DNA of 25,935 nucleotides from a virus (IMGVR_UViG_2636415858_000002:1-25935), one strand, 5' to 3'; shown: positions 18,421 through 24,060, numbered from the stretch's first letter. Notes: generated by a model from the letters alone, not told the origin. Numbers and translations: made by a program.

Positions 18421-18746
18421 ATCAGGCACCGTTTTACAACGGAAAATCGGATACCCGGACTGTTGACCTGTCTGATGCTGTATACCGGCGGCTGATACTG
18501 ATGAAAGCCATGTCGAACATTACTGACTGTTCCGTTCCGGATATTAACCGGATGCTGAGATTTATGTTCGGAAAAAAACGGCGAGCTTATGTTCTGAATA
18601 ATGGTGGGCTGAGGATGAGTTACATCTTTGAGTCCGCGCTCTCGTTGGCAGAACTGGCGATTATCCAGTCGTCGGGTGCACTGCCGTCCCCGCCGGGTGT
18701 TTATGTTTCAGTAGTTTTAAAGGAGTCCCGTAATGAAGGCCAGTGA
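18421..18746 (+). pseudogene. phage baseplate-type protein (P2 gpI-like position), 3' fragment; 5' part lost at the IS2 junction
   Basis: Frame continuous from the IS2 end to a stop overlapping the tail-fibre ATG (TAATG); assignment by position only. Confidence 0.35.
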
Positions 18747-20118
18747 TAAACCCCGCCAGCTGGCGGTCCCCTTTGCGAGTACCGGAGATAAAAACCGTAT
18801 CCCGGACAAGGCGACACAGCAGACCAGAGAGAGCGGTAATGCTGCGTATGATTCAGGTTTTCCTCCGGTGACCATGACAGCGGTCTCAGCGGGAGGTATA
18901 CCGCCACACGGCAAGGATTTTAACGGTCTGATGTACGATATTACCGCAGCAATACGGTTCGCCCAGGCTGGCGGTTTGTACACGTATAATGCCGGTTTTG
19001 CGGGGGCCATTGGTGGATATGCAAAAGGAGCCATTCTCGCCGGAGTCGCAACAACAGCGGTCTGGCTGAATACCACAGACGATAACCTGACCGATCCTGA
19101 AGGCTCCGACAGTGCGGGCTGGGTAAATCTTCTTGAGGATCCGAAAAGGATATTCCTGCGGCAGAAGAACAATCTGTCAGACCTTCAGAATAAAGGGACG
19201 GTACGGGATAATCTTCAGGTTTACAGTAAAGAGCAGTCAGATCAACGCTATGTTCATCGGGAAGGCGATAAAATAACCGGAGAGCTGAAAATCCGTGGTG
19301 TTAATGCGCTGAGGATTTTCAACGAAGCTTTTGGCCTGATTTTTCGTCGTTCGGAAGAGTGCCTGCACCTTATTCCCACCAGTGAAGGTCAGGGGGAAAA
19401 TGGCGATATTGGTCCCCTGCGCCCGTTCACCATTAATTTGCGGACGGGTGAAATATCCATGTCGCATAAAGTGTCTGTTGGCGGTGGTTCGCAGGTCAAT
19501 GGTGCGCTGGGTATCGGCGTTCAGAACGCCCTGGGGGGGAATTCAATTGTTCTTGGTGATAATGACACCGGATTTAAACAGAATGGAGACGGTATTCTGG
19601 ATGTTTATGCTAATAGTCAGCGTGTATTCCGCTTTCAGAATGGAGTGGCTATTGCTTTTAAGAATATTCAGGCCGGAACTGCCAGAAAATTCACGTTATC
19701 CAGCGCCAACAACTCCACGAAAAATGCAGCGTTTTATTTGTGGGGTAATCCATCCAGGTCTGTTGTTGCAGAGCTTGGCGATGATTCAGGCTGGCATTTT
19801 TTCAGCCAGAGGAATACAGATAACAGCATCACGTTCGCCGTAAACGGACAGGTAATTCCGTTAAATTACGGAAACTTCGATGCCCGCTATAAACATCGAA
19901 CTGAGGGGGTACAGGATGTGCGGTATGGTTATGAAATGTATTACAACCCTGGCAGCAACACCGTTTCATGGACGTTTCGCTCACCTTCGGGACACGGGTT
20001 GTCAGGGATATCGATATCGGATACCGGCCGTAACTCAGCGGATAACGTCAACGGTGTGTATTACCGACCGCTGCAAAAACTGATTAATGGCATCTGGTAT
20101 AACGTAGCGAGTATTTAA
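18733..20118 (+). CDS. tail fibre protein with P2 gpH-like C-terminal domain
   Basis: 461 aa; C-terminal region [51 protein letters not shown]...[11 protein letters not shown] resembles the P2 H C-terminus as recalled. Confidence 0.7.
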
Positions 20119-20120
20119 CA

Positions 20121-20666
20121 ATGTTGCATTTAAAAAATATTACGGCAGGTAATCCGAAAACCGCGGAACAATATCAGCTGACAAAACAGTATGATGTCAC
20201 CTGGCTTTTTTCGGAAGACGGCAAAAACTGGTATGAAGAACAGAAGAACTTTGCCAGTGACACCATAAAAATGGTTTACACCGGAGACGGGCGCGTGGTG
20301 TGGGTCGGTAAGGATGTGACAGGCATTGAACCCCGTAACGCCAGTGTTATTGAAGTTCCTGATATTACCGCCAACCGCCGCATTACCGCGCCGGGTTACT
20401 GGTTTTACCGCAATGATGAATTTGTCTTTGACTACAGACTCAAAGCGGAAGATGAGCGTGATGCCCTTCTGGCTCAGGTCAGTGCCCGGACAGGGGAATG
20501 GGAAGAAGACCTGCTGCTGGGGCTAATCAGCGACGAAGACCGGGAAAAACTGAAAGCGTACCGCATTTACGCGAAATCGCTGCAGGCGATGGATTTCAGT
20601 GTCATCACTGATAAAACCTCATACAACGCCATTGAATGGCCCGCCTCTCCGGAAATTTCTTCCTGA
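20121..20666 (+). CDS. tfa: tail fibre assembly protein (Tfa/gpG family)
   Basis: 181 aa MLHLKNITAGNPKTAEQYQLTKQYDVTWLFSEDGKNWYEE...IEWPASPE, resembling e14 TfaE as recalled. Confidence 0.7.
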   Translation: MLHLKNITAGNPKTAEQYQLTKQYDVTWLFSEDGKNWYEEQKNFASDTIKMVYTGDGRVVWVGKDVTGIEPRNASVIEVPDITANRRITAPGYWFYRNDEFVFDYRLKAEDERDALLAQVSARTGEWEEDLLLGLISDEDREKLKAYRIYAKSLQAMDFSVITDKTSYNAIEWPASPEISS

Positions 20667-21795: not shown

Positions 21796-21844
21796 CGCTT
21801 CAATGGGAAATTGTTGTCGCCATTGTTCGATTAACGCGTATTTT

Positions 21845-22132
21845 TCAGCGACTCCTGTGCAAAATACGCTGTTGCTTTTTTAATATATCTCGCTCAAGGC
21901 GAGCTTCATTTAACGCCTTACGCAGTTGCAGAATTTCAGATTCCAGTTCAGCCACCGTGCGGGAACCAGGAGTACCGAGCCCTTTTCTGGCGGCGGTAAC
22001 CCATTGTCCTAAAGTGCCTTCAGGAAGGGATAATCGGGAAGCGCCTTCACTGATCGAAAGTTGATTTTCAAGAACCGTTCTGACAGCTTCGGCTTTGAAC
22101 TCTTTAGAGTAACGTTGGTTTTTTCTGCTCAT
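21845..22132 (-). CDS. IS600 OrfA, 95-aa variant
   Basis: Same C-terminal change (KKQQRILHRSR) as copy 1. Confidence 0.8.
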   Translation of the reverse strand: MSRKNQRYSKEFKAEAVRTVLENQLSISEGASRLSLPEGTLGQWVTAARKGLGTPGSRTVAELESEILQLRKALNEARLERDILKKQQRILHRSR

Positions 22133-24060
22133 TATTAGCTCCTTCTGATGCCATTCTATTTCAGGAAGGAGTGTCCGTTAAACTCAGGCTACCTCACAAA
22201 GCCCGGCACGCTGAATGACTTTCTGATTGCTCCTGATGAGGGCGACCTGAAACCGGATGTCGTCAAACGCTTTGAGGAAATGGTGGTGCAGGCGCAGCAG
22301 AGCGCCGGGGCCGCAGCCGGAAACGCACAGCAGACGGCGCAGGATGTGGCGGCAGCCGCAACGGCCCGTGATGATGCACAACGTTTTGCGGAGAATGCCA
22401 GACAGGATGCAACCGTCACAGCTGAGGACAGAAAGGCCACTGCGGAAGATGTGACAAGCACAGGAGCAAATGCAGCCGCAGCCGGACAGAGCGCACAGGA
22501 TGCCGCAGGTTATGCCCGCGCAGCAGAACAGGCCAAAAATGACATTGATGCTGCGCTGACCGGCACTCTGAAAATGGCTAACCATCTGTCAGAAATCGCA
22601 GCAGCAGGCGAAAAGGCACAACAGAAGTCCCGGGATAATCTGGGGCTGAAAAGTGCGGCCACGATGGAAGCACAGAGCGACATTTACGACCGGACAAAAG
22701 GCCGTCTGGCGATACCCGGCGCATTCGGCTTTGGGTGTGCTTTTCTGCCTGAAGATGTTATCCGTTTTGACACTAAGAGTGATTTCCTGGCCTGGGTAAG
22801 GAATGCGCTGCCAGGTGAATATTCCGTTGCTGGCCCCTACGACATCATCATACCCGACACACGGTTTGAAGGGGTGCTCAGCATCCGGTGGACTGATGCA
22901 CGCCCTGAGACAACAGAACCGCGGTACAGAGCCAAATCCCTTACTTTTTACGGCATTAACGGCCCCATTTATCACACCCGCTACTGCTACTGGCCCATAT
23001 CCAGACTGACTGGCTGGGTGAAAATAAATATAACCACAGAAGATATTATTTACAGAATCGTGGCGAGCTCTGTCCGCAACAGATGGGGAGACCCTGACAT
23101 TGGCGGGCTGATTATTGCTGCGTACCAGGGAGAAGCTGACGGTGATAAAGTCATCAGACTTGTCAGGGGGCAGTCATACAGAGGCTCACGACTGGGACCG
23201 GTGGGGATTTCAGTGCCCAGTACTCCCACCGGAACGTATATAGCATCCCCACAATTTTTCATTACGGGATGTTCAGAGCATTCATTACCGGGGTCATATT
23301 GCGCCCTGTCCGGGGGCCGGATGCACATGTCTCTGGCGCAATGCCCGGGCTTTTTATTCGCACATCGTGAGGAATGCACCGTGGAAATTAAAAAAATCAT
23401 TAATCCCCGTTATACCGAAAGTGGCGCAGTAGACTGTGACGTTTTTTTTGACGACAGGGACCAGGCAGTCCCCTACACAGCCACCGCTGATGATGTCGCT
23501 CCGACGGGTCAGCAAATCTGGCAGGAACTGCAAAGCGGCAAATGGGGTGAGATAGCCCCATTCACTGTGACACCAGAAATGCTGGAAGCGGCCAGAGAGG
23601 CCAGACGTCAGGAAATTGAAGCATGGCGCGCAGAACAGGAGGCGAAGCCGTTCACGTTTGAATGGAACGGTCGTATCTGGAATGCTGGTCCCGACTCACT
23701 GGGCCGCCTGTCCCCGGTAGTCATGCTGGCAAAATCTGTCACAGCACAAACACATATGGCGTGGAGCGATGCCGATAATCAGCAGGTGAAACTGTCGATG
23801 CCGGAACTGGAAGAACTGGCGGCAGCAATGGTGCAGGCGCAGGTCGATCGCAACGATGAGATTTATCGCCGTCAGCGTGAAATGAAAGAGGAGCTGAGCG
23901 GTCTGGATGATTTGGCTTCAATTCGGGCGTTTGACGTTGAGTAATGAATAAGCCGCAACTGGCGGAATCACAGAAGACCGCTTTGCTTACCGAAGCGGAG
24001 TCTGTCATCCGGCCGCGGGGGCGTGCTGTCAGGCTGAACAGGGAAACGGATGAATCCGGG

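Follow-up and report, generated by a model that had tools for sequence, protein, structure and literature searches.

A decayed dual-fibre host-recognition module beside an ipaH gene in a Shigella boydii prophage

The region described here lies in the chromosome of Shigella boydii ATCC 9210, where it forms the distal end of a temperate myophage that has degraded. The window, the whole stretch of 25,935 nucleotides that was analysed, is 100% identical to that chromosome (CP011511.1). Very probably it holds the decayed remnant of a standard dual-fibre host-recognition module of a contractile-tailed prophage. In this reading the second "fibre gene" is an stf gene that an insertion sequence has interrupted and a 1-nt deletion has joined to a separate chaperone gene. 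The gene identities and the conserved architecture are observed directly, as are the lesions: a replacement by IS66-family and IS2 elements, an IS600 in stf codon 82, and the 1-nt deletion. The module in the window is now non-functional, and it probably persists only owing to the flanking ipaH effector gene.

The features of the region are the following.

14842..17231: ORFs of an IS66-family element
17263..18420, minus strand: IS2 remnant (orfB 17218..18006, orfA 17964..18374; Pfam HTH_Tnp_1/rve; 99.9% identical to the IS2 annotated in EIEC VL40)
18423..18746, plus strand: what is left of a baseplate wedge gene (DUF2612), its 3' end with residues 94-201 of 201 (Pfam DUF2612 positions 82-180/181, E 2e-31)
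18733..20118, plus strand: fibre 1, an intact 461-aa baseplate tail fibre (ORF; PHROG tail-fibre families, E 5e-125)
20121..20666, plus strand: Tfa, 181 aa, the cognate tail-fibre assembly chaperone of fibre 1 (Pfam Caudo_TAP, E 6e-26; phrog_136, E 6e-60)
20690..20933, plus strand: 5' fragment of stf, codons 1-81 and one base, part of a lambda-Stf-type collar domain
20934..22196, minus strand: IS600 (IS3 family) inside stf, 1263 bp (orfB 20977..21795, orfA 21845..22132)
22197..23370, plus strand: 3' part of stf, Ala-rich coiled-coil shaft and globular distal domain, with the 1-nt deletion at about 23315/23316
23381..23944, plus strand: separate DUF4376 gene, GTG start, 187 aa (Pfam DUF4376, PF14301, E 2e-15; phrog_1141 2-190/194)
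23944..24123, plus strand: degenerate Tfa-like ORF, 59 aa (Pfam Caudo_TAP positions 66-98, E 1e-3; phrog_7784 full length, E 4e-44)
24124..25935, minus strand: gene of an ipaH-family T3SS E3 ubiquitin ligase, continuing past the window end (Pfam NEL, E 3e-75, and LRR_TTSS)

Upstream of the fibres, the IS66-family and IS2 elements (window 14756..18415) replace about 3.4 kb of baseplate genes, corresponding to 8615..12000 of locus L001. The genes lost from the window encode the hub, the spike, the sheath initiator, J and the 5' half of DUF2612. The right end of IS2 truncates the DUF2612 wedge gene, and the residues that remain are 98-100% identical to those of EIEC proteins. A full-length homologue matches the wedge gp17 of Vibrio phage XM1 (PDB 7KH1, E 4e-8), the holder of the baseplate spikes in that phage, and the sheath of an intact relative matches E217-type sheaths.

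The original prediction placed a fibre ORF and a Tfa ORF downstream of this point, and both are present exactly where they were put. The fibre was called P2 gpH-like, a name that does not fit: it has no P2 gpH-type attachment domain, Pfam detects no N-terminal fibre domain in it, and only its distal part resembles the fibres of Mu S and T4. Residues 1-141 follow the DUF2612 wedge gene, with which they co-vary in protein comparisons across relatives, and appear to be an anchor specific to the DUF2612-type baseplate. The remainder, residues 142-461, looks like a shaft and tip that can be exchanged, of the type found in Mu S and T4 fibres. Residues 181-460 match the Mu tail fibre S (PDB 5YVQ, E 3e-13). 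A fibre of EIEC FDAARGOS_944, which has another N-terminus and lies behind a Mu-like YmfQ baseplate, is 88% identical to residues 142-461. The middle of the gene (19271..19845) is swapped for other sequence in other EIEC loci. The exact fibre 1 protein is present in five assemblies. Modular exchange of host-range determinants, as originally suggested, is thus real, since fibre 1 is mosaic and the module is found on two unrelated baseplate types.

The order of wedge protein, fibre, Tfa, phage_tail_N Stf and DUF4376 protein, all on one strand at the prophage end, is common to the window, phage phiP27, and EIEC and STEC prophages. In the Stx2e phage phiP27 (NC_003356, compared by its GenBank annotation), genes L53-L57 have the same order and spacing at the right prophage end. 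Protein identity is 75% for Tfa (L55), 46.5% for Stf over its full length and 74% for the DUF4376 protein. Unlike the window, phiP27 has a Mu-like (YmfQ-type) baseplate and another fibre 1 anchor, and only residues 142-304 of fibre 1 align. All of its genes are intact and it is without ipaH cargo, whereas the module in the window is disrupted by insertion sequences and frameshifted.

The ipaH prophages of EIEC (RMDEC465, VL40, FDAARGOS_944 and RMDEC332) share 94-99% DNA identity with the window over the module. Their Tfa is 96-98% identical. They also share the DUF2612 wedge, the 59-aa ORF and an ipaH gene directly downstream. They differ in retaining the whole baseplate, in an stf that has the extra base and no IS600, in the centre of fibre 1, and in a 141-nt segment of the stf shaft; some have IS2 or IS4 elsewhere in the module. 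In the comparison with RMDEC465, fibre 1 is 79% identical over residues 1-461, Stf 91% over residues 1-471, and the DUF4376 protein 91%. Of 5426 complete E. coli genomes, at least 102 have the tfa-stf junction.

These relatives bear on the reading first given to the tandem, namely that it is an unusual and recent hybrid in which recombination between two different prophages in this lineage brought a P2/Mu-type fibre cassette together with a lambdoid one for side tail fibres. The N-terminal anchors of the two fibres are unrelated, the Stf collar is 46% identical to that of lambda Stf over residues 1-110, and the fibre genes are clearly mosaic, all of which favours such an origin. However, the same order and tfa-stf junction recur in phiP27, in the EIEC and STEC prophages and in the surveyed E. 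coli genomes, and the pairing occurs behind both Mu-like and DUF2612-type baseplates. Recent spread of those loci from this Shigella locus is excluded by their 46-90% protein divergence. Thus the pairing is old and conserved, not local. Single loci of the same architecture (EIEC RMDEC465, phiP27) align end to end with it, which is essentially the observation that the original prediction had itself named as telling against the idea. A recent hybrid is very improbable, being largely refuted by the phiP27 comparison and the junction survey. The gene comparisons indicate that the tandem is not a novel hybrid, even though the exchange of modules within it is real.

The second fibre gene of the conserved module begins, as predicted, with an ATG at 20690, 23 bp past the tfa stop. 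However, the span 20690..23944 is not one ORF. The frame stops at 20978-20980, and the first ORF (20690..20980) encodes 96 aa. An IS600, which was absent from the original reading, lies in the gene. It is flanked by a 3-bp target duplication, CAA (20931-20933 and 22197-22199), has the terminal inverted repeats TGAGG...CCTCA, and is the same as the window copies at 7535-8798 and 10078-11341 except for one base. Its length falls short of the typical 1264 bp or so because one base is absent from the A7 slippery run at about 21876-21882. RefSeq matches to this copy (99.8-99.9%) are annotated as IS3-like element IS600 family transposase.

Excision of the IS600 in silico restores read-through (...VYEDS-KPGTLNDFL...). 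With the missing base also restored, Stf is 471 aa long and ends at the ancestral stop, TGA 23368-23370; intact homologues in Shigella and E. coli have 467-475 aa. The lambda-type collar that had been assigned to the Stf N-terminus is recovered on this repaired protein, where Pfam phage_tail_N (PF08400) matches over profile positions 1-131/134 (E 6e-67). In the PDB, the collar matches those of Ur-lambda Stf (9E7M, E 4e-15) and of the XM1 collar spike gp40 (7KJK, E 3e-8). As a fibre gene of the lambda Stf type, the window copy retains the collar domain but not an intact ORF, having the IS600 at codon 82 and the 1-nt deletion. A second assembly carries the same IS600 insertion and the same fused ORF.

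The deletion lies in GGGG(T)GCC, and all four EIEC loci aligned keep the base. The window reads GGGGGCC at this site, compared with GGGGTGCC where the extra base is present. This deletion alone puts stf in frame with the DUF4376 gene downstream. The site is within a G run, where an assembly error is possible, and the second assembly showing the deletion has other frameshifts. The DUF4376 gene starts 10 nt past the ancestral stf stop and has its own RBS, GAGGA, upstream of the GTG. DUF4376 is likewise a separate gene in phiP27 (L57, 188 aa), in STEC346 (187 aa) and in EIEC, and the repaired lengths of 471 and 187 aa agree with those of intact homologues. About 150 residues (EIAPFTVTPEML...) had been taken as the end of Stf and judged unlike the lambda distal domain. 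They belong to the DUF4376 gene and not to the fibre.

The fused ORF, of 662 aa, could alternatively encode a real fibre whose C-terminus is an intramolecular chaperone, with no frameshift artefact involved. In Alteromonas phages, the DUF4376 chaperones are similar to intramolecular chaperone domains (PMC10579305), and the fused ORF is found in two assemblies. Yet the extra base is present in 4/4 EIEC relatives, the two genes are separate in EIEC, phiP27 and STEC346, and the DUF4376 gene in the window comes with an RBS and a start codon of its own. The closest Stf homologues (about 85% identity or more) have at most about 470 aa; longer ones (641 aa at most) share only 43-64% identity, and a DUF4376 domain is absent from all of them. 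In addition, the residues from the frameshift to the GTG are out of the ancestral frame, and the gene is interrupted by IS600 anyway. On the comparative evidence of the EIEC alignment, the separate genes and the homologue lengths, a true fusion was rejected and has hardly any probability.

The separate gene encodes a small protein with a C-terminal PF14301 domain, directly downstream of a fibre gene. DUF4376 proteins in this position are experimentally required chaperones in Alteromonas phage V22 (gp27) and in Campylobacter CJIE1 (PMC7289586, PMC10579305, PMC7882524). Like these and gp9 of Alteromonas phage A5, the window protein has DUF4376 at its C-terminus, a family in which lengths are about 190-240 aa and the gene directly follows the fibre that it serves. 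By this analogy, the DUF4376 protein is probably the cognate chaperone, or a transient cap, of Stf. The relatives in question are distant and share with it the Pfam domain only, the experiments concern non-enterobacterial members, and the window copy is accidentally fused to the fibre ORF. A phmmer search of the DUF4376 protein against PDB sequences gave only noise (E >= 0.1), so that the TfaMu homology put forward in PMC7882524 was not reproduced.

That the two fibres are alternatives of a phase-variable, invertase-driven host-range switch (of the Mu G, P1 C or e14 P type) is the least credible reading and close to excluded: beyond ipaHb, the EIEC VL40 locus has a pinE pseudogene, and Tfa-like fragments flank the ipaH cargo in FDAARGOS_944, but both fibre genes are on the plus strand, each with a complete N-terminal anchor and start codon. 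The original prediction had called for a search for an invertase or crossover sites nearby, and none was found. Pfam gave no recombinase domain of a serine invertase (Gin/Cin/Pin-type) in the window ORFs examined, and a hix-core scan of the window gave one AAACCNNGGTTT-like match (7206, one mismatch), not above chance. Every inverted repeat of at least 30 nt in the window is an IS copy; among all repeats of that length the sole exception is a 32-nt pair (1459/4817), well away from the fibre genes. The switch was rejected on these results, none of them above chance.

Beyond the collar, Stf departs from lambda. Matches of lambda-group phages to Stf are confined to residues 1-110, and because they end there the distal domain is taken to be unrelated to the gp37-like tip of lambda; no homology of the distal region to lambda Stf or T4 gp37 was found. 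An AF2 model of the 3' part (22197..23370) has a mean pLDDT of 75. For the model of the distal domain, Foldseek found no PDB entry at E <= 0.001, and thus no solved structural relative, and a PDB sequence search gave no match for this domain. The model matches only predicted viral fibres, of coliphages Av-05 and Goslar (31% identity by tblastn).

Two known systems are nevertheless close in parts. Ur-lambda Stf has a homologous N-terminal collar followed by an Ala-rich trimeric coiled coil. Unlike Ur-lambda, a siphovirus, the window phage is contractile-tailed, and the gene directly after stf is not a Caudo_TAP gene (Tfa) but DUF4376, followed only by the degenerate 59-aa Tfa-like ORF. Vibrio myophage XM1 has a gp17-type wedge and, in gp40, another receptor-binding protein whose N-terminus is of the same collar type. 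This makes XM1 a precedent for two sets of receptor-binding proteins on a simple contractile tail. It differs in bearing tailspikes, not fibres, in the location of the gp40 gene away from the baseplate genes, and in its distant homology. The collar docking modes of Ur-lambda Stf and of the XM1 neck spike have been described (PMC12617516, PMC10457771).

The docking sites of the fibres, the chaperone role and the use of two receptors are the part of the explanation that we infer from such comparisons. The intact prophage would have had a contractile tail with a simple baseplate of the XM1/E217 type, and its conserved dual receptor-binding module would have comprised five genes: DUF2612 wedge, fibre 1, Tfa, Stf and DUF4376. 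The wedge would anchor the baseplate fibre, the N-terminal 140 or so residues of fibre 1 docking on it, with Tfa as the chaperone of this fibre and a tip of the Mu S type. Stf would be a second, independent fibre, whose Ig-like collar (phage_tail_N) may dock as a ring on the tail or neck. The collar would be followed by a trimeric Ala-rich coiled coil and then by a globular distal receptor-binding domain, which the DUF4376 protein may fold or cap. Carried on the same virion, the two fibres would confer two receptor specificities.

Next to the module is the ipaH gene, which is cargo and lies outside the fibre module. Its product has 608 aa in the genome record (L006), and the region is 99.3% identical in DNA to one annotated ipaHb in EIEC VL40. 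The 59-aa Tfa-like ORF is 98-100% conserved in every ipaH-bearing locus (L003-L006) and missing from loci without ipaH; it forms the junction of fibre module and cargo. Differently named ipaH genes (annotated ipaHb, ipaHe and ipaH3/Hc) are all joined to the block of fibre, Tfa, collar-Stf and DUF4376 through this same ORF. With DNA identity reaching 99%, this block occurs on two unrelated contractile-tail baseplates, Mu-like YmfQ and XM1-like DUF2612, with only the first 80-140 or so residues of fibre 1 swapped. The shared block and shared ORF suggest homologous recombination within the block as the spreader of ipaH effectors. Tentatively, then, the block might be a portable platform for host range and cargo, recombination within it carrying ipaH effectors between phage lineages and its collar fibre docking at the neck, though we hold this to be somewhat doubtful. 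If it were true, a lambda-type collar fibre on sheathed tails would dock at the neck, as in XM1, and not at the tube tip.

The sequence is that of an already published Shigella boydii chromosome and adds little new biology. The architecture is also known, having been deposited with phage phiP27, and RefSeq gives relatives the same domain names. Its value is corrective: a reading of the raw sequence had merged an IS-split fibre gene, a frameshift and a chaperone gene into one "gene". How a collar fibre and its DUF4376 protein are arranged on contractile tails is a structural question to which the decayed locus itself contributes nothing testable. The wider family, in which a lambda-type collar fibre and a DUF4376 helper occur on contractile-tailed Stx and ipaH phages, may merit structural work in an intact phage.

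The window matches CP011511.1 (Shigella boydii ATCC 9210) with 100% identity. The following features make up the region around the fibre genes or lie elsewhere in the window.

6018..6440, YdaT-like gene
6728..7135, CI-like HTH repressor
14842..15261, 15258..15608 and 15639..17231, ORFs of an IS66-family element that abuts a truncated IS2
18393..18746, wedge remnant, 3' half of a DUF2612 gene (Pfam), overlapping the start of fibre 1
18733..20118, fibre 1, 461 aa, intact (ORF list)
20121..20666, Tfa, 181 aa (Caudo_TAP, Pfam)
23944-24123, Tfa-like ORF, 59 aa, full-length match to phrog_7784
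24124-25935 (minus strand), ipaH-family E3 ligase gene (NEL and LRR_TTSS), converging on the fibre module

Positions 11454-14755 are collinear, at 99.8%, with the intact prophage of the enteroinvasive E. coli (EIEC) strain RMDEC332, and encode an SLT-domain protein, a Dit-like protein and a Pam3 gp18-type plug. Next, at 14756-18415, the IS66-family element and truncated IS2 take the place of 3.4 kb that in RMDEC332 hold the hub, spike, sheath initiator, J protein and 5' half of the DUF2612 gene. This last gene is cut by the IS2 end at about 18420; its full-length homologue has a match in gp17 (7KH1), the baseplate wedge protein of XM1, which in that phage holds the receptor-binding proteins of the baseplate. 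The prophage cannot build a tail, and its fibre genes are thus relics.

The first cassette of the original prediction, fibre 1 with Tfa, is present as described. Fibre 1 matches tail-fibre PHROGs, and its residues 181-460 match structure 5YVQ of Mu fibre S; an N-terminal domain of the P2 gpH type was not detected in it.

The second cassette had been read as a single gene, 20690..23944. There is no such ORF: the frame opened by the ATG at 20690, 23 bp past the 181-aa ORF, ends at a stop at 20978-20980 after 96 aa. IS3-family transposase domains are encoded by two ORFs on the minus strand, 20977..21795 and 21845..22132, and repeat analysis places 20933-22196 among four window copies of a 1264-bp element. 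RefSeq annotates copies 99.8-99.9% identical to it as IS600. The element has the ends TGAGG...CCTCA and is flanked by a CAA duplication (20931-20933 and 22197-22199). Once 20690..20933 is spliced in silico to 22200, the frame is open again (...VYEDS-KPGTLNDFL...), and the 662-aa product has the Pfam domains phage_tail_N (residues 1-131, E 6e-67) and DUF4376 (545-650).

The IS600 copy in stf is 1263 bp long, one base short in an A7 run (21876-21882) between orfA and orfB, so that orfA has 95 aa rather than 100. Both the 7535-8798 copy and the 10078-11341 copy have the base; the same loss applies to the copy at about 1770-2998. As the run is likely a programmed -1 frameshift site, the stf copy may have lost the capacity to produce the OrfAB transposase. 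The alternative explanation for the missing base is a homopolymer sequencing error.

Elsewhere, 7535-11341 holds two complete, 100% identical, inverted IS600 copies around 1279 bp containing an Ash/Rha-type antirepressor gene (8858..9697), an arrangement that is composite-transposon-like or inversion-prone. Positions 1-7200 are crowded with copies of IS1, IS600 and further IS3-family elements; prophage regulatory genes, the YdaT-like gene and the CI-like repressor, stand in between.

An alignment to four near-identical EIEC loci shows the window to be one base short in GGGG(T)GCC, at about 23315. Putting the base back gives an Stf of 471 aa that ends at TGA 23368-23370. A 187-aa gene opens ten bases further on, with a GTG at 23381 preceded by GAGGA, and ends at 23944. 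A second assembly has the same IS600 insertion and a fused 598-aa ORF. The deletion is probably real, a homopolymer assembly error being a less probable source. A genuine fused Stf-DUF4376 fibre is contradicted by comparison. Besides the base missing relative to the EIEC loci, the two genes are separate in those loci, in the Stx2e phage phiP27 (L56, 490 aa; L57, 188 aa) and in STEC346 (649 aa and 187 aa), as in the repaired window. Homologues nearest to repaired Stf (about 85% identity or more) reach at most about 470 aa; identity is just 43-64% for the longer ones (up to 641 aa), all of which lack DUF4376. Thus, the last 150 or so residues, which had been taken for an un-lambda-like Stf C-terminus, belong to a different gene.

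Two solved structures match the collar domain of Stf: Ur-lambda Stf over residues 1-92 (9E7M, E 4e-15) and gp40, the neck collar spike of myophage XM1 (7KJK, E 3e-8). In lambda, twelve Stf copies form a collar at the gpV/gpM junction, feeding four trimeric fibres (PMC12617516); in XM1, six spike trimers dock on neck proteins gp4 and gp5 (PMC10457771). The distal domain has no similarity to lambda, matches to which stop at residue 110. It shares 31% identity with fibres of virulent coliphages, Av-05 for example. Its AF2 model (mean pLDDT 75) matched no solved fold, and does match the predicted Av-05 and Goslar fibres. In Alteromonas phage V22 and a Campylobacter CJIE1 prophage, experiments show that DUF4376 proteins encoded directly 3' of fibre genes are required as chaperones (PMC7289586, PMC10579305, PMC7882524); a transient-cap role has also been proposed for such proteins. 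In the Ala-rich Stf shaft, a 141-nt in-frame segment (22361-22501, 47 aa) is shared with EIEC RMDEC465 and missing in RMDEC332, VL40 and FDAARGOS_944, a coiled-coil length polymorphism.

The order wedge, fibre, Tfa, collar-Stf, DUF4376 recurs in phiP27, in EIEC and STEC prophages and in one phage record labelled Actinobacillus. The tfa-stf junction alone occurs in at least 102 of 5426 complete E. coli genomes (coverage at least 80%). The tandem is therefore a conserved unit rather than a recent hybrid of two lineages, and single known loci align with it end to end, an outcome named beforehand as speaking against the first proposal. Modular exchange of host-range determinants is nevertheless real, as seen within fibre 1. 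A Mu-like YmfQ baseplate precedes the module in phiP27, FDAARGOS_944 and STEC346, and a DUF2612-type baseplate in the window and the RMDEC and VL strains; the first 80-140 or so residues of fibre 1 change with baseplate type, the remainder being kept at 88% identity. Likewise, the fibre-Tfa-Stf-DUF4376 block of FDAARGOS_944 (L003, 5082-9278) differs from those of RMDEC332 (L001) and two further EIEC loci (L004, L005) only in these residues, despite unrelated contractile-tail baseplates (YmfQ versus XM1-like DUF2612). The fibre 1 centre (19271..19845) is also swapped among EIEC loci. An invertase-driven fibre switch, for which a search had been suggested, is excluded here, as no recombinase was found among the window ORFs examined, a motif scan gave no crossover-like sites above chance, and both fibre genes share a strand, each with a separate anchor.

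The degenerate 59-aa ORF and then the convergent ipaH gene lie 3' of the DUF4376 gene. The ORF (L003 9278-9454, L004 11297-11473, L005 11714-11890) separates DUF4376 from the ipaH 3' end in every ipaH-bearing locus examined, whatever ipaH name is annotated, and is absent from examined loci without ipaH. Recombination of ipaH cargo may take place at a constant junction marked by this ORF. The ipaH product has 608 aa in the genome record, the window being cut at an internal ATG; its DNA is about 99.3% identical to the EIEC VL40 gene that bears the annotation ipaHb.

The locus itself is an ordinary prophage host-recognition module, pseudogenised and already sequenced, and the one mildly interesting generalisation concerns its family. 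The lambda-type collar fibre and its DUF4376 helper belong to contractile-tailed Stx and ipaH phages, where the block seems to pass from one baseplate type to another, with ipaH cargo carried via the constant 59-aa junction ORF.
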